A stretch of DNA of 64,000 nt from an uncultured virus (IMG/VR IMGVR_UViG_3300013845_000001) (IMGVR_UViG_3300013845_000001:62001-126000), one strand, 5' to 3'; counted from the first letter of the stretch, positions 22,090 through 55,040 are shown. Program-made: numbers and translations. The notes: generated by a model from the letters alone, not told the origin.

Positions 22090-23130
22090 TTGGCAAAAGA
22101 AAAAATTACTAAAGTCAGATATTTTACAAAAGATAAAGAAAGATACATCAATCAAGATAATTGGAATAAATACAAGAAATATTTGCAGTCAAATATTATT
22201 AAAAATCAGGACGTTAAAGATACGACTTATAAGAGATATGAGGGGTTATTTAGACATTTTCTCATGTGGCTCGGAGAATTTTATGGGGATATTGGTTTGT
22301 ATTCAGATGATTTTATGGATAATGCAGTGGACATAATGGAATCATATATGCTCTTTTGTCAAGAAACGCTTCTTAATCGTAAGAAAATTATAAACATGAA
22401 AGTATCAACCGTTAGTTCATTTTATATCTGGTCTATGAAACGAGGATTTGTAAAGTTTCATCCATTTGATGGGAAACTAGACAGAATGAAAAAGGCAAAT
22501 GAGGAACAAGTGTTAAATCATTATTTCTTATCAGAAGAACAAATTGCAGAAATCAGAAAAGATTTATATAAAACGGAAAACAATAAATGGACAATACAAG
22601 ATCAATTATTATTTGAGATTTCTCTTTTCTCTGCAAATAGACTTGGTGCTTTAGAAAAACTTACAATTTCTTCTTTAAACCTTGATGAAATGGTATTTGA
22701 GGGAATTAGGGAGAAAGAAGGTTATAGAGTTGAAGTTTCTATAGATGAAACATGTAAAGATATGATTGAGACATGGTTATCAATGCGAAAAGATGACTTT
22801 GATTTCTTAGAGTGCGATGCTTTATTTGTACATAAATATCAAGATAAATGGATTCCGTGGTCTGGTGGTATGATATACGACAGAATGGTTAAATTCGGTA
22901 AAATAATTGGGATTCCTGATTTTCACACGCATTGTATGAGGAAGACGGCAATTAATAATATTTACGAAGAAACGGGCGATTTAAATTTAGCGGCACAGTG
23001 GGCAAATCACAAAAGTTCGGCGGTAACTCAGCAAAGTTACATTCGTCCTGCTTCAAAGAGTGATTTAAGAGAAAAGCTCAAACTTCTTAAAGCAAAGCAA
23101 AAGGAAATTATTGATAAAATGGATTCTTAA
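22090..23130 (+). CDS. Tyrosine recombinase (XerC/D-like)
   Basis: Catalytic R (ANRLG), K (REK), HxxR (HCMR), H (ANHKS), Y (QSY). Confidence 0.9.
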   Translation: MAKEKITKVRYFTKDKERYINQDNWNKYKKYLQSNIIKNQDVKDTTYKRYEGLFRHFLMWLGEFYGDIGLYSDDFMDNAVDIMESYMLFCQETLLNRKKIINMKVSTVSSFYIWSMKRGFVKFHPFDGKLDRMKKANEEQVLNHYFLSEEQIAEIRKDLYKTENNKWTIQDQLLFEISLFSANRLGALEKLTISSLNLDEMVFEGIREKEGYRVEVSIDETCKDMIETWLSMRKDDFDFLECDALFVHKYQDKWIPWSGGMIYDRMVKFGKIIGIPDFHTHCMRKTAINNIYEETGDLNLAAQWANHKSSAVTQQSYIRPASKSDLREKLKLLKAKQKEIIDKMDS

Positions 23131-32480: not shown

Positions 32481-33947
32481 ATGGATATTAAAAAACTAGA
32501 CAATTATTCTGTTCCTGTTATGTTCCAAAAACTAAATGAGATGGATACATCTGATGGGAGATTTACTAAAGTAAGAATCTGGATGATGCATCTACAAGAT
32601 AATTATAACGGATCAATTTTTGAACGCCCCGTCGTTGACAACGCAATCCCATCAATTGAGTACATCCCGATCGTCGGTTTTATAGAGAAAAATTCTTTGG
32701 GTGAAGATGACTTTAGTGATCACAGATACATAATCACGAAAAAAGATGGAAACGTTGAAAAAAAATATGCCGGTTCAGCGTATGGCGTCATATTAAGTTC
32801 CGAAGATAATAACGCACATTATGAAGATAGACTATGTGACGATGGCATAACGCGTACATTTTTAGTCGTAGATGGAATTATTTGGAACATGTTTGATAAA
32901 AGTTCAGAAATTATCAATAGGGATTTGGTTAAATCTCATTCAATGGAATTATGGGATTCTATTGAAGGGTGGGAAGACGAAAATAATCTATTCCACTTTA
33001 CCAAGTTTTCATTTAGAGCAGCTTGTATATTGGGCAATGACCAAGAACCAGGTATGCACAATTCCACAATTGAAGTCCAGTTTACAATGAGTGATTTTGT
33101 AAAAAGCATTCAAAGTGAATTGTCAAATAAATTAAAGACTTACACAGATTATGTTAAACAAAACAATAATAAAGGAGGTACACAAATGGCAAAACCAGAA
33201 GAAACAAAAACTGATTTCTCTTTAACTGCAATGCAACAGTTTAGTGAAATAGATAATATAGTTTCTGCACATGAACAGTATCGAGATCGTTGGGGCGACT
33301 TAAGGGTAAGATATTCTGCTGTAGACTTACAGAATGATGAAGTAATTTGTATTGATAGGGCAGAAAATTATACTTATTTCGGCTTCAAATTTGCAATGAA
33401 TGGAGATAAGCCGACTGTAGATTTTGCAACTAAAACAAGAAAGAAAATTGAATACACAAATTTTGAAGAAGGCACTCAGGTAATTGAAAGTGCTTTTTCT
33501 TTTGCAAATGAAGTGGAAGATTTCTGTAAAACCGCTGATAAAAAGATTGGTGAGTTGACAACCGAGAAAGAAACCGCCGAAACAAACTACTCTTCTATTA
33601 AATCAGAGTATGACGAAATCAAACCGAAATATGAAGATTTTGTTAAAGAAAAAGCTGAAAATGAAAAGAAAGCTGTTGAACTTAAAAAAGATGAGTGTTT
33701 TGCGAAATTTGATGAACATTTAAGTACAGTAGATGAATATACCGCACTTAAAAATGAGAAAGATAATTTATCTTTGGATCAGATTGAGGCAAAATGTGCA
33801 ATTTTATTTACACAAAAATCTTTAAGTACAAATTTTACAAAGAAACAGAAAAACAATGACACTTTAACCGCTGATATTGTTGATTATTCATCTAATGATG
33901 AGGGAGTCGTTCAGACAAAATATGGCGCAATTAAAGTAAGCAAATAA
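32481..33947 (+). CDS. Prohead protease/scaffold (YonD-like)
   Basis: HSMEL, ACILG..EPGM; C-terminal coiled coil; position. Confidence 0.75.
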   Translation: MDIKKLDNYSVPVMFQKLNEMDTSDGRFTKVRIWMMHLQDNYNGSIFERPVVDNAIPSIEYIPIVGFIEKNSLGEDDFSDHRYIITKKDGNVEKKYAGSAYGVILSSEDNNAHYEDRLCDDGITRTFLVVDGIIWNMFDKSSEIINRDLVKSHSMELWDSIEGWEDENNLFHFTKFSFRAACILGNDQEPGMHNSTIEVQFTMSDFVKSIQSELSNKLKTYTDYVKQNNNKGGTQMAKPEETKTDFSLTAMQQFSEIDNIVSAHEQYRDRWGDLRVRYSAVDLQNDEVICIDRAENYTYFGFKFAMNGDKPTVDFATKTRKKIEYTNFEEGTQVIESAFSFANEVEDFCKTADKKIGELTTEKETAETNYSSIKSEYDEIKPKYEDFVKEKAENEKKAVELKKDECFAKFDEHLSTVDEYTALKNEKDNLSLDQIEAKCAILFTQKSLSTNFTKKQKNNDTLTADIVDYSSNDEGVVQTKYGAIKVSK

Positions 33948-43140: not shown

Positions 43141-43593
43141 ATAAACAGAACTAAATTTAATGTATCCAAAGATATAGATAAGAGAACTTATGATGGAATC
43201 GTGTTTGATTCAGTATTAGAAATGAAATACTACAGAGACGTTCTATTACCGCTGGTGAAGAGTGGTGATGTGGTAAATTATGAATTGCAAAAACCATACG
43301 AGTTACAACCAAAGTTCGTACACGATACGAAATCAGTTCAGCCAATTAAATATGTGGCTGACTTTTTTATTGTTTATAAAGATGGGCATGAAGAAGTTAT
43401 AGATACAAAAGGTTGTCCAGACAGTGTCGCCACTTTAAAGAGGAAATTGTTTTGGTACCACTACCCCACCGTAAATTATAAATGGATTTGTTATTCAAAA
43501 ATTGACGGAGGCTGGTGTGAATATGAAACCGTTAAGAAAGCAAGGTCTGAACGGAAACGAATAAAGAAAAGCTCTATCAATAACAGAGTTTAA
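43141..43593 (+). CDS. DUF1064-family PD-(D/E)xK nuclease
   Basis: RTYDGIVFDS..E, YVADF..DTKG; probable ATA start at 43141. Confidence 0.85.
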   Translation: MNRTKFNVSKDIDKRTYDGIVFDSVLEMKYYRDVLLPLVKSGDVVNYELQKPYELQPKFVHDTKSVQPIKYVADFFIVYKDGHEEVIDTKGCPDSVATLKRKLFWYHYPTVNYKWICYSKIDGGWCEYETVKKARSERKRIKKSSINNRV

Positions 43594-43789
43594 TATACAT
43601 CACCATAAGATACCAACATTGGTAAAACTACACAAAGGAAATTGTCAAAACAACGCTTAAGACAGAATAACCAACGCTTATGTAAGGTTGCACAACCGCA
43701 ACGCATTATGTGCTATATTGTACATAATAAATTTATTAGTAAATGCAGATACTATCTTCATAAAATAAAACTTATAAAGGTGGCATTGC

Positions 43790-43999
43790 ATGAAAATTAA
43801 ACTGCGCAGTTTAAGAATTAAACAACACATGTCTATGGAAGATTTGGCAATAAAAGCTTTGATTAGCAAATCTACAATAAGCAGGATTGAATCTGGGGAT
43901 ATGATTCCGTCTATTGATATATTGTGTAGGTTATGCGTAGCTCTTGGCGTCACTTTAAACGACATGGTGGACTGCAAAGGAGGTTTTTATGATGACTGA
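43790..43999 (+). CDS. XRE-family HTH regulator
   Basis: MSMEDLA..ISKSTISRIESG..PS. Confidence 0.9.
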   Translation: MKIKLRSLRIKQHMSMEDLAIKALISKSTISRIESGDMIPSIDILCRLCVALGVTLNDMVDCKGGFYDD

Positions 44000-45041: not shown

Positions 45042-46595
45042 ATGGCTGATTTTAGAACTCTCGTAGAACTTATATTTGATAAAGCAAAAGCGAGAAATGA
45101 ATTAAATAGCATTTTAAAGGAATTACAAAAAGACGCCAATTTAAAAACGGAAATAAAAGTCGGTACTTCTGAGGCAAAAAAGGATTTAAATGAAACCGCT
45201 TCAGCAATTGGGAAGATTGTAACTGAATCTAGGCAGTTGTCAAAAGTTAATACAATTAAGACATGGGCTGACAACAACACTAAAGCCATGAAGATGTTTG
45301 GTGATCAGATTCAGGACATCATCACCAAAATGGGAAAGGCTAATCTTTCGCTGTCTGATTTTAAAGGTCTAGATGCCGATTTTAATAGGATTAAAATAGC
45401 GTCCAGAGATATGAATTTACTTGGTAAGACCTGGGGTGATTCGTTTAAGGCAGACGCAAGCAAATTTGCTTCATGGTTGCTTCCTTCTGGCGGAATCATG
45501 ACTGCCATTAGTGGACTACGTAAAATGAAGGACTCTATCGTTGACATAGATACTGCTCTGACTAATCTCTATAAAGTATCCGATGAAACTGGTTCAAAAT
45601 ATAGACAGGTTCTTCAAAGTTCTAATGTGGAGGCTCAAAAACTTGGCAGAACTGTATCCAGTCTTATTGAACAAACTGCAACATGGAAAAAGCTTGGTTT
45701 TACTATAGATGAATCTTCTGAACTTTCAAAAGTATCTTCTATTTATGCTAACGTAGGCGAAGTATCAGATGACGTTGCTGTTTCTGATTTAGTAACCGCA
45801 ATGAAAGCCTTTAACATTGCTGGCTCAGACAGTATAACAATTGTAGATTCGCTTAACAAGCTAGGTAATGAGTTTGCTACTGATTCCGCTTCGTTAGGTG
45901 AAGGTCTTAAAAATTCTGCATCTTCTCTACGTCTTGCTGGAAATGATATTAATCAAACTCTTGCAATGCTAACAGGTGGTACAGAAATTATTCAAAACGC
46001 AGGAGAAATGGGTAATGCTCTGAAAATACTAAGTATGAGAATACGAGGTATGAAGGGCGAGCTAGAAGCACTCGGAGAAGAATATGACAATGTGGAGTCA
46101 ATATCAAAAATACAAACCCAGATCTTGAATCGTACTGGCGGTACAGTAAATATATTTGACAATAATGGAAACTTCAAATCTACATATGAAATACTAAAGG
46201 GAATATCGGAAGTATGGGATAAAATTTCTCAAACCGACCAGGCTGACCTTTTAGAAGTTATCGCAGGCAAACAACGCGGCAACAGTGCTGCAGCTTTAAT
46301 TCAATCATTCCAATCTGGTCAAGTACAAAAGGCTCTTGAAGCTTCAACAAAATCCGCAGGATCGGCATATGAAGAACAAGAAAAATGGATGGAATCAATT
46401 GAGGCGAAGACCAAACAGTACGAAGCCTCGTTCCAGTCACTATCACAAACTATTATTAATTCAAATTTCTTAAAGTTTCTTATAGATTCTGGTACGACAT
46501 TTAATAATGTATTAGATAAGACAATAAACGGCTTTGGTGTTTTGTCTACTACGCTTTCCGGTGCTGGTATAGCGGCATTCATTAAAAACTACGGT
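45042..46595 (+). CDS. Tail tape measure protein, exon 1 (TP901-type core)
   Basis: IDTALTNLYKV, LNKLGNEFA, GNALKILSMRIRG, AGKQRGN; ends ..KNYG with the stop supplied by the first intron codon. Confidence 0.92.
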
Positions 46596-47112
46596 TAACT
46601 CTGTAATAAGAGTTACGCTTAAATTTCCGAGGGATTTAAGTTGGCCTATCATGGGGAAGAATATATCATAATGGCGATATAAACAATTCCATGGGACGAA
46701 AGTTTTAAAATAAAAAGAGGATTAATTGCTTGAAAGTGTAATGCTCACTACTCTTCTATTTTAGAAGAAACCGAAAAATAAGGTAAATAAGTCAAACGGT
46801 TTACACACCGGAGTGAGATTTCTAGGGATAAAAAATAATTCCCGACAGATGTACAATCACCAACGAAGCAGCTAGCCCTATCTGTGTATCACGATGTATA
46901 ATCCGATGGTAACAATTGCGCAAGCAATGTCGGGATAAGATCATTAATGATAGGGAGTGTTCAGAGAGCACCACTCCTCACAGTACATGAAAGCCATATT
47001 TCATTGTGCTGTTAACGCATGTTCCAAAGTGTACACGATATCAACGCTTCACGAGGCGCTGGATATTATAATGTTGTAAAAGATATGGGCTACAGCCTAT
47101 CATTGAGCGTAA
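46596..47112 (+). ncRNA. Group I ribozyme core
   Basis: P AAUUGCUUGAAA (46724-46735); Q CGAAGCAGC (46864-46872); R GUUCAGAGAGCA (46959-46970); S AACGCAUGUUCC (47014-47025); P3 GAGGA/UCCUC; P6a CCCUAUC/GAUAGGG; P8 46980-47012. Confidence 0.85.
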
Positions 47113-47285
47113 TATGGAAAAGTTAATCGTTTCTATGTTATGTATCAAAATAGTTATGTAGATTCTCCCATATTTTTAAATAAAGTATTTATTCGCCTTT
47201 TTATATGATTGAATACTAATATAATGTACCATCCTATATATTGTTTGAATATAATACAATAAATCAAATGGAGATGTATAGAAAT

Positions 47286-47444
47286 ATGACGAAAAAAATT
47301 ATTAATTTGACCGAAGAAGGCGAAGCTCTAGGATATCCAAAAACTCCAGATTCTGAGATGATAGAGATGGGTATATTTGATGGAAAGATAATCAATTTTA
47401 TAAAAGTAATGTTTATAAAGATAGTTAAAATGATGAAAAGGTAG
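47286..47444 (+). CDS. Small hypothetical protein (intron cargo)
   Basis: GGAG SD, TATAAT upstream, hydrophobic/basic C-terminus, followed by a hairpin. Confidence 0.5.
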   Translation: MTKKIINLTEEGEALGYPKTPDSEMIEMGIFDGKIINFIKVMFIKIVKMMKR

Positions 47445-47457
47445 TCAATAGACTACC

Positions 47458-47619
47458 TTATTCCTCGTTCTTTTTATTTTTGTCGTTATCATTAACATGT
47501 TTAATTTCTGAGAACATCTCTACCACATATTCTGGTCTAGGCGTACTTGGATACTGTTCTCCTTTTTCATTGGTGTTATTAGTACTTGTCATCTTGATAA
47601 CATTTTCATCGTCTGACAT
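47458..47619 (-). CDS. 53-aa hydrophilic protein (intron cargo)
   Basis: GGAGGAG SD, overlaps the end of the membrane-protein gene. Confidence 0.6.
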   Translation of the reverse strand: MSDDENVIKMTSTNNTNEKGEQYPSTPRPEYVVEMFSEIKHVNDNDKNKKNEE

Positions 47620-48187
47620 TTATTTCTCCTCCTTCTATATGAATATTTTGTATATTATTATTATTTATAAATTTGGTCTCATAGTAATCAATACCGACAC
47701 CGAATGTATACGATAAAATAGATACTGCGAAAGTGATGCATATGAAATAACTCAACGATTTATGTTTCATGTTCTTTGTAATGTTCACATTTCTATTATG
47801 AATGGCTTCATTAATAAAACATTCACAGAGCATATTATTTACATGTATATCTGCTTTTTTAATATGCTTTTTATCTGTCATTTGATATGTTTGTGAGATC
47901 GCAACAGCCATATCTTTAATTGGGAAATAACTCATTTTATAGCCAGAGTATGCTTTATAAAACTTGTGCAAGCAAATTATAAATAAAATCGTTGACAAAG
48001 CGCAAAATATCAAGTAAACAATAGTACACCATGATAAAGAAAAACGAACAAATTGTGACCAAAGTAATATTTGTGCACTACCAAGTATTGTAAGAAACGT
48101 AATACAAGTATTAATTTTATTACTTAATCTATCGGAATATTCTATCTCCTTATAATATAAGTCTTTGTATTCTTCAAGCAATTCCAT
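47606..48187 (-). CDS. Three-TM membrane protein (intron cargo)
   Basis: Three hydrophobic helices; AAGGAG SD; topology reminiscent of Pycsar-effector/SLATT-like proteins. Confidence 0.8.
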   Translation of the reverse strand: MELLEEYKDLYYKEIEYSDRLSNKINTCITFLTILGSAQILLWSQFVRFSLSWCTIVYLIFCALSTILFIICLHKFYKAYSGYKMSYFPIKDMAVAISQTYQMTDKKHIKKADIHVNNMLCECFINEAIHNRNVNITKNMKHKSLSYFICITFAVSILSYTFGVGIDYYETKFINNNNIQNIHIEGGEINVRR

Positions 48188-48473
48188 ATGATGATGTTCT
48201 CCTTTGTATCATATGGAATATTTTACCATCGTCAATACAATAAAACAAGAAACAGATGTTTGTCGATGAGGATATAAAATCGACATATTTCGACATTTAT
48301 AATATTGAGTTAGTCATTAAGCTGTATATTAAAATAACATAAGCTGAACCCCTCTTTTATACTACAATCTTGCGTCTTACTAGCTTCATTGTTTTCAAAA
48401 TTTTTATACCTATCTGGAAATTTCTTCCACTCCATGATATAATAATTTTTAAAAGAGATACAGGAGGGATTGT

Positions 48474-49565
48474 ATGAAAAGGTTATTATCAATTGTATTA
48501 GTTTTTATTTTCTCTATTAGTTTACTCATGACGTCTTCTGCCGAAGAATATATGGGAGCATGGGTCACAGATGATATTGGAACTTGGTATCGATATAATG
48601 ATGGAACATATCCTTCTTCCTGTTTTATAAAGAAAGATAGAAAACTTTATTATATTAATCAAGATGGGTATGTAGCCCCTAATGTATCACTGTTTGGAGG
48701 ATATCAAACAGATTCTCAAGGAACAGTTATAGGATATACTACTAAAAATAATGTCTATTCTTTATTGCATACGTCTGATGGTTGGAGACAAGATGCAAAT
48801 GGTTGGTGGTATCAATACCCAGACGGTTCTTACCCTAAAAATACTGATATTACTGTAAATGGTAAACTTTATTGGTTAGGAATTGACGGATATATGTTGC
48901 ATGATTGTTATGCAAGAAATCATGGTTATTATGGAAGCGATGGCTCTTATGCTAATAAACTTGATAAAAATGCAAAGATTACTATACAGCAACCAGCATC
49001 AGATACAAGAAGCGATGGAGCCGGGGTTGAAAATACATCGAATGAAGCTTTTCTTAATCTAGTCCATCCAGTCGATATAATAGGTGGCGGCTTTGTTGAA
49101 AATTATGTGGGTGGAATAAGTCCTAGCGTCGCTTTTAGAAACAACTCGGGTAAAGATATAAAATATGTAACCCTTGAAATGACACCTTATAACAGAGTTG
49201 GAGATCCTGTGAATTGTACAATCCGAAACTATTCAACAACAACATGTAGAGCCACGGGTCCATACGCTCCTGATATGGGTGTTGGACAAGGAGCATATTC
49301 AATTACTTCTGGACTGGTACCAATATTTGATCATGATACAGATCACCCTTATTATTATACATCACGCACTTTCGAAAAGAGGGAATTAGAAAAGGCAGCA
49401 TATGCAAAGACATTTAATAACATGCCAGGTTGGGAAAATGTTTGGTATAATAGCAATATATATAAAATAAAAATCACAAAAGCTATTATTGATTATATGG
49501 ATGGTACAAGTGACACAATATCCTCTTTAGATATTACAATGTTCCACGACGATTCCCTCAATTAA
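48474..49565 (+). CDS. Secreted cell-wall-binding repeat protein (intron cargo)
   Basis: Signal peptide MKRLLSIVLV..SSA; GWRQDANGWWYQYPDGSYP-type repeats. Confidence 0.88.
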   Translation: MKRLLSIVLVFIFSISLLMTSSAEEYMGAWVTDDIGTWYRYNDGTYPSSCFIKKDRKLYYINQDGYVAPNVSLFGGYQTDSQGTVIGYTTKNNVYSLLHTSDGWRQDANGWWYQYPDGSYPKNTDITVNGKLYWLGIDGYMLHDCYARNHGYYGSDGSYANKLDKNAKITIQQPASDTRSDGAGVENTSNEAFLNLVHPVDIIGGGFVENYVGGISPSVAFRNNSGKDIKYVTLEMTPYNRVGDPVNCTIRNYSTTTCRATGPYAPDMGVGQGAYSITSGLVPIFDHDTDHPYYYTSRTFEKRELEKAAYAKTFNNMPGWENVWYNSNIYKIKITKAIIDYMDGTSDTISSLDITMFHDDSLN

Positions 49566-49596
49566 ACAAACAGTTAATTGATATAATATGAAATTC

Positions 49597-49630
49597 AAAA
49601 GACCTTTATCAACAAAGGTCTTTTTTCTTT
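49597..49630. terminator. Bidirectional intrinsic terminator inside the intron
   Basis: AAAAGACCTTT-ATCAAC-AAAGGTCTTTT followed by T-run, between convergent genes. Confidence 0.85.
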
Positions 49631-50036
49631 AAAATTTACTCCCACAATTATTGCATTTCCAAGTCTTACCGTTATCTCCCATGCCGAAAATTCCAAATGC
49701 AGCTATCTTTGCGACCTTTTTTGTTGCGGATATTTTAGAGAGGTTTGTGCTGCTACATGTGGGGCATTTTGGAATATTATTTTCTACCTGTTTTTGCGCC
49801 GCCCACATAGCCTCTTGCTCAGGAGTAGCTAAACCTACTGTTCTATTGCACTGAGGACAGATATATTCATTATTTTTTATTGAATAATTCATCTTGATCT
49901 TATTAGGCAACCCAAAATTACAATAAGGGCATTCTACTGTATTTTTTATTAGATCAAGATTAAAGCCACAATGTGGGCATGATTTTGCACTATCGCTAAT
50001 ATTATTATCGCATTCTGGACATTTAATTAAAGCCAT
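49629..50036 (-). CDS. Multi zinc-ribbon protein (intron cargo)
   Basis: MALIKCPEC..CPHCG, CPYC, CPQC, PKCPTCSS..WKCNNCG. Confidence 0.88.
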   Translation of the reverse strand: MALIKCPECDNNISDSAKSCPHCGFNLDLIKNTVECPYCNFGLPNKIKMNYSIKNNEYICPQCNRTVGLATPEQEAMWAAQKQVENNIPKCPTCSSTNLSKISATKKVAKIAAFGIFGMGDNGKTWKCNNCGSKF

Positions 50037-50067
50037 AAATATATTCCCCCACTTATTATTTATGCAT

Positions 50068-50096
50068 ATTATACTTCTATTTATTGTTTAATGCAA
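50068..50096 (-). promoter_or_regulatory. Sigma-A promoter for the zinc-ribbon gene, overlapping the 3' splice site
   Basis: TTGCAT (50096-50091)-17-TATAAT (50073-50068). Confidence 0.65.
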
Positions 50097-53000
50097 CTTA
50101 AAGACCTCGGAAATCTTTCAAACGTTTTAAAGAATATAAATAGTAGTAACAATATAGCTGACAGTTTTAATGCTCTTGAAGTAAGTATGCAAAAGTGTGT
50201 GCTCGCCAGCGGAAAGTTAAGTGTTGCACAACTGGATGCAATAAATTCAGGTACCATATGGAAAACCAACATTGATGGTACTATGGTTTCTGTATCAGGT
50301 CTTTCTAAGACTGAATTAGAAGCAGCAATTTCCACTACCACTCTCTCCGCTTCACAGACCACTGCAACAGCAACTACAACTGGATTCGGTACTGCCCTTA
50401 AAGGTCTTTGGGCAACCATGATGGCAAATCCTTTAATTGCAATAGGAATGGCCGTAACAGCTATCTCAACAGCATGGAATATTTATAATCAGTCCATCGA
50501 AAAAACAAGACAAGCTTCAGCTGATGCGGCGGGCGCATTAAACGAAACCACCTCATCAATTAATGATTATGCTGAAAAGTATAAAAAATTACACGATGAA
50601 CTTGTCAAGGCAAACACTACCGAAGAACGACAGCATGAAATAAAAAGTGATCTTCTTGCGCTCCAACAAGAATTAAACGATAAGTACGGAGATGAGTACG
50701 GAAAATTAAATCTTGTTACAGATGCTTATAATGATCAGACCGATGCAATCTTGGCAAGAAATAAAGCCGCTGCACAAAATTACCTTCTTGAAAATAGAAA
50801 AGGTATAGCTGATGCGACTAAGCAAATGGAACAAGACCGTACCTATACGCTTGGCAGCACTGGTAATTTATCAAACGACTATGCAAAAGAAATATATAGT
50901 ATAGCTTCAAAATACTCTAACCAGGGTATAAAACTAGAGTCTCTTAAAAATAACGGAGTAGATGCCTATACCATCAAGTTTTTTGGAAATGCCGAAAATG
51001 CAGAAAAAGTCATACGTAATCTCTCCAATGAGATTCAAGATCTTGGAAATAAATATGAAGACAACAACTTCATCAATGGGTTCTTAGATAACTCAACAAA
51101 TGCACTTAAAGAGAACCAAAAAATATTAGATAAATACGATGAAATATATAACTCCGCATTGATGTCTCAAATTGCCACTGATAACGAACTATCAGAAGGT
51201 TATAATAAGGCTACAAATGCCGTTAAAGCATATAACGATGCACTAATTTCTGGTGACGAATCTAAAATATTATCGGCAAGAGATGATCTTAGGGAAGTAA
51301 AAAATTCCATTGATTTAACAAGCGATAACTGGAAACGATATGGAAATGTAATGACTGATATTTTCGATCAGGCTAATACTGGACTATACGATTTTAGAGA
51401 TGCGCTCTCTTCAAATAACGATAATATCAAAGATTATGCTAAAAATCTAAAAGGTTTATCAAAAACAGATGTATTATCCATGGCAAATGATGGAAAAGAT
51501 GATAGTTTTGATAAAATTGTTGAATCTGCCAATAAATATGGATTAAGTATTAACCAGGTCATTGATGAATTGGTCAGATTGAAATTTGTTCAAGATGATG
51601 TAGCAAAATCTGGTGAAGTAGCATTCACTCCTCTCTCCAAGCAAGAAGTAATTTCAAACATCAACTCTCTATCTGAAGGTTTTGAATCTTTAGATAAAAT
51701 TATGAAGAGTATATCCGACAAAGATAATCCGTTTGACTATGCTCTACTAGATGACAAAAAGTTCAAAGATAATTTTAAAGACTTGGGAGAATCATATACC
51801 GATTTCGTTGAAAAAGTATCTTCTTCACCAAAAGATATTAATATCACAAAATCTGCATTCAATGATCTCGTAACTACATGGATTGATAGTTCTGGTGTAT
51901 TAAATGGACTTACAGACGAAAACGCCAATCTTGCTACTGCTATGCTTCAGAACATGGGTGTTGCTAATGCGGAAGAAGTTGTAATGTCTCGATTAGCAAT
52001 TGCACAGGAGCATTTAGCTGCTGAAAAAGCTTATACGGCAGAAGTAAGTAATGACCTCGCAAATGCTACCGCCAGTGAGATTCCAGGAATCATAGATGAG
52101 GCAACTCAAAGTGATATCGCTAAGGTTGCGCTTGCCGGGCTGGTATTAGAGAAGGAATTTTTCAATGGAAATGCACTTGATACTAGTGGAGATATTCAAA
52201 ATATCATCTCTCTTATCGGGGTCATCGGTACTGCCAATACAGCACTCAAAGCGTTAAATACCTTGAAAGCCGGTGGAAATGTAGGAGGCAATATTGGGGG
52301 AAAAGAAGGCTATGATGCTCTTGTAAGAAACGCACAACAGGAAGTAGATGAAGCAATAAAGGCTGCTTCTGAGTATAAGGGCAAGGGTTCAAGTGTCAAC
52401 GCATCGTATACAGGTGGTACAAAAACAAACAAGCCCTCTTCTGGTTCTAAAAAAGATAAAAAAGACACCGAGAAACCTATTGACTGGATTGAGCGACAGC
52501 TAAAATTGCTTAAAGATAAAAGGTCAGAACTGGTCAGTAAAATTTCTGACACCTATTCTGCATTTTCCACAGCTACGCATGATCAAATTCTGGAGCTGGA
52601 CAAAACACTCATTGACGAATATGCAAACGCAGTTAATCAGTATCAGCAGGAATATGATAAAGCTGTTAGTAAAATATCGGCTCAAAACAAAGCAAAAATA
52701 GAAAATGGGTCTATGTCTGTAGACACTCTTTCTGGTACTGAATTAGAAAATGTGCAATCAGCAATGGACGCTTATGATAAACTCGCTGGTACACAGAAGG
52801 AACAATCTGAAGCACAAAAAACGCATCTAGATGATATAAAGTCTAAATATGATGCTATTTCAAAATCTATTGAGAATGAAAACAATAAATTAAAAGATTC
52901 TAATTCTATACTAGAAAGCCAGATGGAATATTACAAGTCATCTGGTATTGTTATCGACTCTTCATTTTACGACAGGCTTATTCGGAATACGTCAGGATTA

Positions 53001-55040
53001 ATTTCTAATGCCAGAGATACAATTAGTAATAAACGAGCGGAATTAAGGGATCTGCTTGCTAATGGAGCAGACAAGTCCTCACAAGAGTATATTGATCTGA
53101 AAAGTGAAATTGCTGATGCAGAGAATAATGTATATGCTCTAAAAAAGGCGCAGGAAGAATACAGTAACCAACTACTCCAAATGCCAATAGACCACCTCTC
53201 CACATTAGTTTCGATGTATCAGGATATTGGAACCGCTATTTCGGATTGGGGAGCCGAGGTTGAGGCCTCTGGAAAGAAATTGGACGCAGGATATTACCAG
53301 CGTTTAATATCTAATAGTGCAAAAGTCGTAGATAATTTGAAAGAACAAGCATCATTAATTGAAGATACCATGTCTGAATATGAAGTGGGAAGTGACCGCT
53401 ACCTTGAACTCTATAATCAGTTACGGTCTGTTAACTCTGAAATGTCTACCACCGTCCAGAACATGCGTAAGCTAAATGAAGAGATGTTGAAACTTCCGCT
53501 TGAAAATATCGGTAGTTTTTCAACAGAGTTGCAGAAAGTAGCAGATGCATTAAGCAAGGTGCAAGAAGAACAGGATTTAGTTATCTCGGCAGTCACGAAC
53601 GCTATTCAGAAACAGATTGATGTTATTAACGACCAGAAAAACGCATACCAGGAAGCTAACGAATCACAGAAGAAGGGTTTAAAGGATAAACTTGACTTAC
53701 TTCAAAAGCAGAATACCCAATTAAAGCGACAGACCGACTATGAACAGTCTTTATATGATCTTCAAAAAGTGAACCAGCAAGCCACCGAGGCTGTAATTCG
53801 TGATGGAGAAAAAGTTTATGAGGTAAACGCAGATAAGCAAAGAGAAGCTCTCGAAAAAGTTCAAGATGCAAAATTCGCTCTCGAAACCGGAAAGATTCAA
53901 GATGAAATTGACGCACTCGATGAAGCGCTTGAAAAACAGAATGAATTATATGATTCACAGATAAAGAATCTTGAAACTATTGCAGATCGATGGAAACAAA
54001 TTGCAGAGAACATCAAAATTGCACAGGACGAAGCAAAGGCCGATGATATTCTAGGCGCCGGCTGGAAAGACAAGATACTCTCTGGTAATGACACTGCCCT
54101 ATTTAATACATTCTCAGGAATGTACGCAAACACCGCTGAACAGCTCAAAAAGTATCAAGATCAAATAGACTCCACAAATAATATTCAGTCATTGTTAGAG
54201 GATTACATTGCTTCATATAAGGAAGGAACAATCACTTACGATGAAGCCGTAAAAGGTATCAATAATCTCCTATCTCAGCTCAATCAGAAAATGTCTGCCA
54301 CAGATAATTTGAAGAATATCTTTGATTATTTAGGTACCGTAAATGACACGGCTGCTAACGCAGATGCGATTCTGACGGGTATCCAAAGTGGATTGAAAGA
54401 TACTGCCACTGAGTTACTAAAGTCCTTAGAACAGTACAATAAGAATGCTGGAATGATATCTGAATATACGTCTAGTTGGCAGAAACTTACCGACAACGTG
54501 TCTTCAATGCTTGAAGTGCTAAAAGAAGTCAGAAACAATTTAGAAGATAGTTATGATTATGAGCGAGATCGTGACAATGATAATACTAGATATGGAGGAG
54601 GAAAAGACGGAAGTCCCGGAACTCCCGGAAAGGGCGACTACGTAAATAGTGGCCCTGGTGTATATGCTGATGGCATCAAAAATGGACTTGTTGGGAAATC
54701 TACAGATTCTGAGCGAGAAAAGATGCTCAAACATCTTGCTACAAATAATTTGAAGCCGGGAGAAGTTCCAATACTTGCTCATGAGGGAGAGGCTATCTTT
54801 AATGATGAACAACAGAATAATCTTCTAAAGAACTTGGCGTCTGCTAATAGTTTTAAGCCTAATATTCCTGATTATGGCAGTTTTCTAAATCAAATTACAG
54901 TAAGAGAATCGACTCCAAAGCAAGAGTTTAATTTTGGGGATATCAACATTCAGAAATGTGATGCTCCAGATCAATTAGCACAAGGAATATTAGATGGTAA
55001 ACTTGCATTGGCATTAGGACAAAGACTCGGAAAAAGATAA
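50094..55040 (+). CDS. Tail tape measure protein, exon 2
   Basis: ALKGLWATMMANP, long helical region, IDWIER, EVPILAHEGEAIFN; no SD before ATG 50091. Confidence 0.9.
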   Translation, partial: QLKDLGNLSNVLKNINSSNNIADSFNALEVSMQKCVLASGKLSVAQLDAINSGTIWKTNIDGTMVSVSGLSKTELEAAISTTTLSASQTTATATTTGFGTALKGLWATMMANPLIAIGMAVTAISTAWNIYNQSIEKTRQASADAAGALNETTSSINDYAEKYKKLHDELVKANTTEERQHEIKSDLLALQQELNDKYGDEYGKLNLVTDAYNDQTDAILARNKAAAQNYLLENRKGIADATKQMEQDRTYTLGSTGNLSNDYAKEIYSIASKYSNQGIKLESLKNNGVDAYTIKFFGNAENAEKVIRNLSNEIQDLGNKYEDNNFINGFLDNSTNALKENQKILDKYDEIYNSALMSQIATDNELSEGYNKATNAVKAYNDALISGDESKILSARDDLREVKNSIDLTSDNWKRYGNVMTDIFDQANTGLYDFRDALSSNNDNIKDYAKNLKGLSKTDVLSMANDGKDDSFDKIVESANKYGLSINQVIDELVRLKFVQDDVAKSGEVAFTPLSKQEVISNINSLSEGFESLDKIMKSISDKDNPFDYALLDDKKFKDNFKDLGESYTDFVEKVSSSPKDINITKSAFNDLVTTWIDSSGVLNGLTDENANLATAMLQNMGVANAEEVVMSRLAIAQEHLAAEKAYTAEVSNDLANATASEIPGIIDEATQSDIAKVALAGLVLEKEFFNGNALDTSGDIQNIISLIGVIGTANTALKALNTLKAGGNVGGNIGGKEGYDALVRNAQQEVDEAIKAASEYKGKGSSVNASYTGGTKTNKPSSGSKKDKKDTEKPIDWIERQLKLLKDKRSELVSKISDTYSAFSTATHDQILELDKTLIDEYANAVNQYQQEYDKAVSKISAQNKAKIENGSMSVDTLSGTELENVQSAMDAYDKLAGTQKEQSEAQKTHLDDIKSKYDAISKSIENENNKLKDSNSILESQMEYYKSSGIVIDSSFYDRLIRNTSGLISNARDTISNKRAELRDLLANGADKSSQEYIDLKSEIADAENNVYALKKAQEEYSNQLLQMPIDHLSTLVSMYQDIGTAISDWGAEVEASGKKLDAGYYQRLISNSAKVVDNLKEQASLIEDTMSEYEVGSDRYLELYNQLRSVNSEMSTTVQNMRKLNEEMLKLPLENIGSFSTELQKVADALSKVQEEQDLVISAVTNAIQKQIDVINDQKNAYQEANESQKKGLKDKLDLLQKQNTQLKRQTDYEQSLYDLQKVNQQATEAVIRDGEKVYEVNADKQREALEKVQDAKFALETGKIQDEIDALDEALEKQNELYDSQIKNLETIADRWKQIAENIKIAQDEAKADDILGAGWKDKILSGNDTALFNTFSGMYANTAEQLKKYQDQIDSTNNIQSLLEDYIASYKEGTITYDEAVKGINNLLSQLNQKMSATDNLKNIFDYLGTVNDTAANADAILTGIQSGLKDTATELLKSLEQYNKNAGMISEYTSSWQKLTDNVSSMLEVLKEVRNNLEDSYDYERDRDNDNTRYGGGKDGSPGTPGKGDYVNSGPGVYADGIKNGLVGKSTDSEREKMLKHLATNNLKPGEVPILAHEGEAIFNDEQQNNLLKNLASANSFKPNIPDYGSFLNQITVRESTPKQEFNFGDINIQKCDAPDQLAQGILDGKLALALGQRLGKR

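Follow-up and report, generated by a model that had tools for sequence, protein, structure and literature searches.

A divergent group I-type intron candidate with exchangeable cargo genes in a phage tape-measure gene

The tape-measure gene of an uncultured virus (IMG/VR record IMGVR_UViG_3300013845_000001) is interrupted by 3,498 bases, which start with a conserved, covarying structured RNA and continue with five open reading frames (ORFs) on both strands. The DNA analyzed is a stretch of 64,000 nucleotides (positions 62001-126000 of the record; hereafter the window, whose own numbering is used throughout), taken from a 128,564-bp virus genome that has direct terminal repeats and is rated complete. 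A guide segment within the RNA is complementary to the start of the second exon, and the genes carried behind the RNA differ among relatives. Comparison with these relatives supports a group I layout, and positions 46596-50093 probably represent a cis-spliced, divergent group I-type intron with a long guide for exon 2 and an exchangeable cargo bay. A first-pass annotation of this DNA had described a group I intron used as a hotspot for accessory genes; its observation is confirmed here, the intron being real in the comparative sense that the gene is split by a core of group I layout, and its interpretation is partly supported.

The same core was found at the same site in 12 further records: L002, L003 and L020-L025 from IMG/VR, L006 and L007 from metagenomes, and L011 (Hungatella hathewayi WAL-18680) and L012 (Lacrimispora sp. 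HJ-01), both of them prophages located in bacterial chromosomes. A relative has been classified as a provirus, and the window's own genome has three ORFs with a Phage_integrase domain, in line with a temperate lifestyle. The search with a covariance model of the core covered 151 family genomes and the loci compared here, and one more of the 151 genomes contained a distant version of the core (L019). Blastn of positions 46300-50400 against 50,697 phage records gave no match. A DNA search and covariance model R1 each gave one copy of the core in the window's genome, and a 10-mer at window position 32520, considered as a second copy, was found not to be part of a core.

The split tape-measure gene and its exon junction

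Exon 1 of the tape-measure gene (45042..46595, plus strand) contains 518 codons, ends in KNYG, and matches PhageMin_Tail (9.4e-21). Its ORF (45042-46598) is terminated by a TAA at 46596-46598, which is the first codon of the intron. Exon 2 (50094..55040, plus strand) lies in an ORF of 1,649 aa (50091-55040), and its initial ~21 bases are complementary to the guide. The exon 1 product is 60% identical to residues 3-522 of P0001, an uninterrupted protein of 2,139 aa, and the two ORFs jointly align across the break with uninterrupted tape-measure proteins of ~2,130 aa, P0001 covering both. The conserved structured RNA occupies 46596-47067, and the five ORFs lie between it and exon 2. Joining U46595 to C50094 keeps the frame and gives KNYG/QLKD (a slash marks the junction here and below), and KNF[EQD][QDN]LKN is read uninterrupted over the site in six of the 120 listed proteins (P0001-3, P0055, P0071 and P0120). 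The break is preceded by a U and exon 2 by G50093 (plus strand), the terminal G of the putative intron; a G precedes exon 2 in all 12 records whose 3' splice site could be placed.

The two ORFs might instead each yield a polypeptide of their own (518 aa for the first, and 1,649 aa from the ATG at 50091 for the second), or the phages might be defective, with the interruption being a non-splicing RNA and an accessory-gene island. An ATG or TTG directly precedes exon 2 in six of seven records, Rfam sees no group I intron, and many prophages are defective. However, L006 has ACG, which is not a start codon, ahead of exon 2, and its first nine exon 2 codons differ from those of the window by six synonymous and no non-synonymous changes, beginning with codon 1. 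This indicates that these codons are translated and that translation must enter via exon 1. There is no Shine-Dalgarno-like sequence ahead of 50091, and the recurring (A/T)TG is otherwise explained, because it forms part of the -35 box, TTGCA(A/T), of a minus-strand promoter-like site described below. In addition, the genome to which the window belongs has terminal repeats and is rated complete, the core is conserved with compensatory changes between lineages that are 68-72% identical, and the guide follows changes in exon 2. We therefore regard two separate polypeptides or defective phages as very unlikely.

Approximately 20 database proteins of ~996 aa (among P0005-P0034) terminate in KNFDWLCNKSYLKIA followed by a stop, which corresponds to translation of exon 1 continuing for a few codons into an intron of this type. 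Such proteins indicate that truncation of these tape-measure genes by gene callers is routine. The last bases of exon 1 can also be folded into a mini-hairpin, C(UACG)G at 46589-46595 in the window and C(UUCG)G in L006, L011 and L020-L024; this may be due to chance, or it may have a role in presenting the splice site.

Structure and covariation of the RNA core

The elements of the RNA occur in the order P3, P4-P6, P7, P3', P8, P7', which is the order of the group I pseudoknot. The catalytic core, from P1 to P7 together with a P9-like hairpin, would lie wholly in the first ~470 nt of the intron, and the stretch from 47068 to the terminal G would be dispensable for the RNA. RNAalifold on 10 sequences predicted 87 pairs, of which 36 show compensatory changes. 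For the covariation model, two of the RNAalifold helices were swapped for P1 and the P7 pseudoknot. In this modified structure 98.5% of cells pair across the 10 sequences, compared to 38-45% when the partners are slid, and 38 of the 88 pairs are changed on both sides, compared to 2-8 when slid. For four of five measures none of 500 shuffles reached the observed value; for the fifth, further pair types, 41 of 500 did.

The exon side of P1 is GGU (46593..46595, plus strand, as are all elements of the core), in which U46595, the last exon base, faces G46644. This U.G pair and the outer G-C pair were each found in 10 of 10 aligned sequences, and the middle pair is G-C in six, A-U in three, and C-G in one. 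The 5' strand of P7, G(A)GAGC (46964..46969), pairs with GUUCC (47021..47025), which ends the part conserved across all relatives. Its bulged A (C in one lineage) is followed by an invariant G-C pair, the candidate guanosine-binding pair being G46966-C47024, an arrangement of the bulged base that we take to resemble P7 of Tetrahymena. The outer pair of P7 is G-C in 7/10 and A-U in 3/10 sequences. In the distant L019, the five P7 pairs are UA, AU, AU, GC and AU, which include two further compensated pairs.

Compensatory changes were also found in other helices. The first intron hairpin (UAACUCU...AGAGUUA, 46596..46615) has seven pairs, one of them changed on both sides (A-U in six sequences, G-C in four), and its 5' arm could alternatively pair with the guide. 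Eight of the 12 pairs of a long 5'-domain hairpin resembling P2.1 (46649..46694) are changed on both sides. P3 is formed by GAGGA (46717..46721) and UCCUC (46975..46979), with one of its five pairs being G-C in 9/10 and A-U in 1/10. The P4-P5-P6 domain with its extensions (46726..46956) contains a P6-like stem (46876-46882 with 46950-46956) with five of seven pairs changed on both sides, and one pair of P4 is compensated. In the P8 hairpin (46980..47012) seven of 12 pairs are changed on both sides. The P9-like hairpin (47037..47067) is present only in closer relatives. Two earlier assignments were dropped: the hairpin at 46596-46619 as the P1 guide, as L006 lacks a G opposite the splice-site U there, and AAAAGAUAUGGGCUAC at 47079-47095 as P7', as it is absent from L003, L007 and L006.

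Pairing of the guide segment with both exons

A single segment of the RNA is complementary to both exons. The guide (46618..46646, plus strand) pairs with the start of exon 2 through 46622-46643, as an extended P10, and with exon 1 through GCC at 46644-46646, as P1. When the core was compared with the genome by blastn-short, 46623-46643 proved to be the reverse complement of 50094-50114. Within AAGUUG.GCC (46638-46646), GCC aligns with the GGU of exon 1, while AAGUUG and the 15 preceding bases align with exon 2. The guide continues without a break into the bases that pair with exon 1, so that both exons would be aligned on one strand.

The pairing of guide and exon 2 covers 20-22 of 24 positions in 12 of the 13 records, including all seven that were analyzed first. 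Other registers of the guide gave a mean of 8.1-8.8 (standard deviation 2.3-2.4), and the next best gave 16-17 of 24. Compensatory changes between the window and L006 convert C-G to U-A, C-G to A-U, and A-U to C-G, and three third-codon changes in exon 2 of L006 are matched in the L006 guide. On the exon 1 side, the exon GGU and guide GCC are replaced by GCU and GGC in Hungatella and by GAU and GUC in L020-L024. The start of exon 2 in L002 is otherwise unrelated, yet the pairing with the guide is kept. For L020-L024, a blind scan for the best complement of each record's own guide gave sites with 21-22 of 24 pairs, the next best having 19, and these sites come after a G and keep the frame (IKNFD/HLKDLGNL). 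In comparison, an ordinary, Rfam-positive intron located 190 nt upstream in L002 showed guide-type pairing of just 13-15 of 24.

Two arms that are inverted copies flanking the core and cargo could also be the inverted repeat of a transposon or recombination cassette, with the interruption being removed or exchanged as DNA. Frequent exchange of the cargo would fit this explanation, as would an IS66 element within the L025 cargo and three ORFs with a tyrosine-recombinase (Phage_integrase) domain in the window's genome (G000:C1:188-727, 49843-50418 and 84528-85052, the last being window 22528-23052). However, the right arm is exon 2 coding sequence, the left arm is directly contiguous with the bases pairing to exon 1, the U.G wobble falls exactly at the in-frame junction, a register that is sensible only for RNA, and the duplexes of L006, L011 and L020-L024 contain G.U pairs. 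Furthermore, the break points of the cargo, at 47066-47069, are away from the left arm. No well-supported contig joining the exons without the element was found in the four sequencing runs examined, for which DNA contigs were available and uncovered parts of the stretch are uninformative; the sole contig skip, from 47033 to 50090, has a shorter side of just 30 letters, with unknown letters between. Excision or exchange through a DNA inverted repeat is consequently considered extremely unlikely.

These comparisons suggest that the long pairing between guide and exon 2 could select the 3' splice site without any structure at the 3' end of the intron. If the ~21-nt guide (46622-46643) rather than 3' intron structure sets the 3' splice site at the start of exon 2, the stretch from the core to exon 2 can hold any DNA and the cargo is free to vary.

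Cargo turnover among relatives

The variable cargo bay (47068..50067) is swapped wholly or in modules in relatives. Among the 13 records with the core there are at least 11 different cargo sets, and the cargo is thus not invariant, as the hotspot proposed 3' of the core would require. Intron lengths are 950, 1170, 3084, 3498, 3857, 4406, 4416, 4686, 5453, 5493 and 5702 (twice) nt. Blastn homology to the window ends at 47067 in L003, 47068 in L007 and 47066 in L012, and it restarts at 50089 or within a zinc-ribbon gene. The start of the variable part, at 47068, is slightly earlier than the annotated 47113. L002 shares 46405-48484 with the window at 99.4% and diverges afterwards. A contig of sequencing run X1 has a joint at 47068, beyond which 1,362 other letters replace 47069-48468, and loose contig ends at 47062, 47067 and 47069 in two more runs represent further cargo variants. 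The exchange would be most simply explained by homologous recombination, with the conserved core anchoring the left side and either the zinc-ribbon gene or exon 2 the right side.

The cargo of relatives encodes an NYN nuclease, YbjQ-domain proteins, lipoproteins, a TIGR04255 protein, a P63C protein and an IS66 element. The first-pass annotation had suggested genes for superinfection exclusion or defense, and genes resembling known anti-phage defense genes were found in relatives. L020 and L021 encode a GmrSD_N/NsnA-like protein of 582 aa (5e-22; 1.3e-28) beside a LexA-like repressor, and L024 encodes a KwaA-like protein of 187 aa (PADLOC 1.9e-15) and a KwaB-like protein of 314 aa (Pfam 5.8e-8; PADLOC 2.3e-6). 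The two L024 genes are adjacent yet convergent, while the criterion for Kiwa is kwaA and kwaB in one operon. For the window's own five ORFs, PADLOC gave no model of weight, the best being PglX at 0.0023; the products of this cargo include proteins of envelope type. None of the 50 cargo ORFs scanned in the window and relatives matched the LAGLIDADG, GIY-YIG, HNH or His-Cys box Pfam families at the E-values applied.

Several loci have further features. In L025 (9125-15647), the core is followed by tail-collar-domain ORFs of 797 and 296 aa and a complete IS66 element (transposase 5e-90, Orf2 3e-39). The distant L019 locus (L019:1-6400, G134:C55) contains a core scoring 48.7 bits, an antisense 136-aa zinc-ribbon gene and a tape-measure-like ORF of 1,704 aa. 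L002 (9364-11462, corresponding to window 46405) contains a second, ordinary group I intron (RF00028, 56.2 bits), which precedes the cargo intron by 190 nt in the same gene and encodes an HNH-like protein of 478 aa (phrog_559, 1.8e-19); the window does not have this intron. One purely speculative route by which an intron lacking an endonuclease might spread is hitch-hiking on a neighboring HNH intron like that of L002.

Cargo genes and signals of the window

All five ORFs of the first-pass annotation were located on the two strands, and as it had noted, none matches a homing-endonuclease family in Pfam or PHROGs. The ORF at 47241..47444 (plus strand; 67 aa if started at a TTG, 52 aa if started at the ATG at 47286) is a doubtful gene and the weakest call; it is common only to the window and L002, and it had no match in Pfam, PHROG or PADLOC. 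The 53-aa ORF (47458..47619, minus strand), which also had no family match, overlaps the end of a 193-aa ORF by 14 nt, and by eye a Shine-Dalgarno-like GGAGGAG was found 8 nt ahead of its ATG. Between these two convergent ORFs, at 47440-47457, is a hairpin, GGTAGTC AAT AGACTACC, which was noticed by eye and missed by the terminator scan.

The larger three ORFs could be assigned general features. The 193-aa protein (47606..48187, minus strand), annotated as having three transmembrane segments, has hydrophobic stretches at residues 46-78 and 144-167, which fit two to three membrane spans. The 363-aa protein (48474..49565, plus strand) had been called a secreted cell-wall-binding protein. Export is predicted from its hydrophobic, signal-like N-terminus, and two endolysin-type repeats match PHROG endolysin families (3e-16, 9e-10), making cell-wall binding plausible; there was no Pfam match at E<=0.01. 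The multi-zinc-ribbon description of the 135-aa protein (49629..50036, minus strand) agrees with several zinc-ribbon Pfam matches (1.4e-9 and weaker).

Host-type promoter elements had also been described, and are confirmed only in part. Two well-placed promoter-like sites were found in the gap between the divergent 193-aa and 363-aa genes: TTGACG-16-TATGAT (48235-48208, minus strand) precedes the 193-aa gene, and TGGAAA-17-TATAAT with a TG element (48415-48443, plus strand) precedes the 363-aa gene. Over the stretch as a whole, which is AT-rich, the scan gave 31 sigma-70-like sites compared to 23.2 +/- 4.8 in shuffles, which is no clear excess. The cargo genes are probably expressed in lysogens from their own signals, and the relatives that are prophages in bacterial chromosomes make lysogen expression possible; temperate phages of Lachnospiraceae would use the stretch as a bay for exchangeable accessory genes, from which lysogens may benefit. 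Directly upstream of the tail genes, outside the intron (43201-43999), the window encodes a DUF1064 protein (1.4e-26) and a Cro/CI-type helix-turn-helix protein (1.2e-14).

A resident antisense zinc-ribbon gene

One of the cargo genes recurs across the intron family. The window, L002, L006, L012, L022 and L019 each carry an antisense zinc-ribbon gene beside the 3' splice site. Over the first 94 codons, the window and L012 copies have 65 identical codons, 21 synonymous differences and 8 non-synonymous differences, which indicates that this ORF is a real gene. In the protein atlas, the 135-aa protein matched generic viral zinc-ribbon clusters alone. A promoter-like sequence, TTGCAT-17-TATAAT (50068..50096, minus strand), was found by eye straddling the 3' splice site and facing the zinc-ribbon gene; the window site fails the scan's rule of four of six matches for the first hexamer, whereas equivalent minus-strand sites over the splice junction pass the scan in L006, L003 and L007. 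The zinc-ribbon gene is a conserved resident of the intron family and not a mere passenger, and among the cargo genes it is the strongest candidate for one linked to the intron. In Hungatella hathewayi (L011:5518-5917), the copy at this place is divided between two frames, which overlap at a T/A run; a frameshift, a pseudogene or an error in sequencing could account for this.

Cis or trans splicing, and points against an intron with a long guide

Several observations weigh against a divergent group I-type intron whose 3' splice site is set by the guide. With the Rfam group I model (RF00028), no match was found in the window at the gathering threshold or at E<=10, or in L006, L016, L018 and L001 at E<=1. 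The same model scores 56.2 bits on the neighboring ordinary intron of L002, indicating that the tool works here and that the window RNA is atypical. The covarying structure was derived from the same alignments on which the changed pairs were counted. P1 has just three exon pairs, and P7 is invariant in the close group, its covariation coming from one three-sequence lineage and the distant L019. The guide also folds as a P2-like hairpin, which competes with the long pairing. A stem closing the cargo was sought between the sequences following the core and those preceding the 3' site, and the duplex energies were no better than in shuffles at five of five loci. No convincing 3' site was found within the 7 kb examined for L025, where the best complement had 18 of 24 pairs with ties, and the best P1/P10 candidate of L019 (GGAU / ... 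AAGUGAGUCC ... G / UCACUU) is out of frame and gives no open frame.

Finally, the stretch that separates the core from exon 2 contains plus-strand terminator-like hairpins and antisense genes. One of the hairpins in the window, resembling an intrinsic terminator (49597..49624, plus strand), is inside the intron and has an 11-pair stem followed by TTCTTT. With such hairpins and antisense genes in the path of the tape-measure transcript, a single pre-mRNA needs read-through, and trans-splicing would otherwise be required; the view of the intron as a neutral landing pad is, given the same features, an assumption.

Trans-splicing would mean that an RNA consisting of exon 1 and the core ends at a cargo terminator, that a second RNA starts before exon 2, and that the guide duplex joins the two. 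The core is entirely 5' of the cargo, with the 3' side supplying just the terminal G and exon 2, no stem closes across the cargo, and a duplex of ~21 bp is long enough for pairing between two molecules. The plus-strand terminator-like hairpins within the intron could end the first RNA, and a promoter-like TGGACA-18-TATATT (50016-50045, plus strand) lies 48 nt ahead of exon 2. However, promoter-like sites are not enriched, as given above, and no conserved plus-strand promoter before exon 2 was seen in scans of the relatives L006, L003 and L007. The relatives with introns of 950 and 1,170 nt have scant room or need for two transcripts, and phage late transcription commonly passes terminators. 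Joining of two RNAs is for these reasons judged unlikely, and cis splicing is the preferred explanation.

The cis-spliced intron may be taken a step further, in a form that we put forward tentatively and do not favor outright: the choice of the 3' site would have been ceded to the ~21-bp duplex, which continues from the internal guide sequence, only the terminal G would be needed on the 3' side, and the result would be an open-ended bay in an essential tail gene, filled by temperate phages with exchangeable envelope, regulatory and defense genes, that also allows the two halves to be joined in trans.

Comparison with known systems

In prophage morons and defense hotspots, accessory genes that bring their own promoters and terminators are swapped at a fixed place between related temperate phages; many of these genes are envelope-targeted or defense-related. 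Unlike morons, which sit between genes, the bay in the window would be an intron within an essential structural gene. A literature survey limited to open-access papers and preprints gave no account of a multi-gene cargo other than endonucleases in a phage group I intron, and no account of a natural guide of ~20 bp for exon 2. The paper PMC11318856 deals with group II elements only.

The closest location is that of the group I introns TMP-IVS1, IVS2 and IVS3a/b in the tape-measure genes of Bacillus cereus-group prophages, as described by Tourasse and Kolsto (2008, PMC2504315). They are similar in being introns of the self-splicing type in a prophage tape-measure gene, most are without a complete homing endonuclease and are inherited with the prophage, and homologous cores adapt the guide to the site. 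They belong to IA1/IA2 and are ORF-less or have one endonuclease gene (PMC2504315). In contrast, the intron type of the window is Rfam-negative, holds between 1 and about 8 unrelated genes in both orientations, and has a guide of ~21 nt for exon 2.

In IStrons, a group I ribozyme is joined to an IS200/IS605 or IS607 element (Tourasse et al. 2014, PMC4227781). They share with the window a 5' core, a coding load 3' of the core and a 3' splice site kilobases away, and they occur in Clostridia and phages; their load is tnpA/tnpB inside an inverted-repeat stem, and the element transposes (PMC4227781). Unlike IStrons, the intron of the window is found at one fixed site in one gene and has a variable load. 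No Pfam match to tnpA/tnpB was found in the 50 cargo ORFs, which gave weak zinc-ribbon likenesses only, and the IS66 element of L025 belongs to a different family. The closing inverted-repeat stem of IStrons also has no counterpart, there being no duplex beyond shuffles in five of five loci.

The giant ND5-717 group I intron also has passengers, which are reportedly ordinary mitochondrial genes. This intron, in hexacoral mitochondria, houses genes other than endonucleases, as does that of the window (PMC6545197), and differs in being organellar, with fixed essential passengers in a loop of the core and no exchange hotspot. Extended guides are used in engineered trans-splicing group I ribozymes, in which a longer guide duplex similarly grips the exon without a structural tie (PMC3895272, PMC6155759). 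Those ribozymes are man-made and extended toward the 5' exon target (PMC3895272 and PMC6155759), whereas the intron in the window is natural and would bind the 3' exon.

Gene callers split tape-measure genes of this kind, and surveys for defense genes would overlook the inside of a structural gene. If it is true that the guide sets the 3' site, this would provide a simple rule for an unconstrained cargo and a natural model of guide-directed selection of the 3' exon. Introns in phage tail genes and introns fused to transposons are both known, and an exchangeable island of accessory and defense genes would be a different use of a self-splicing RNA.

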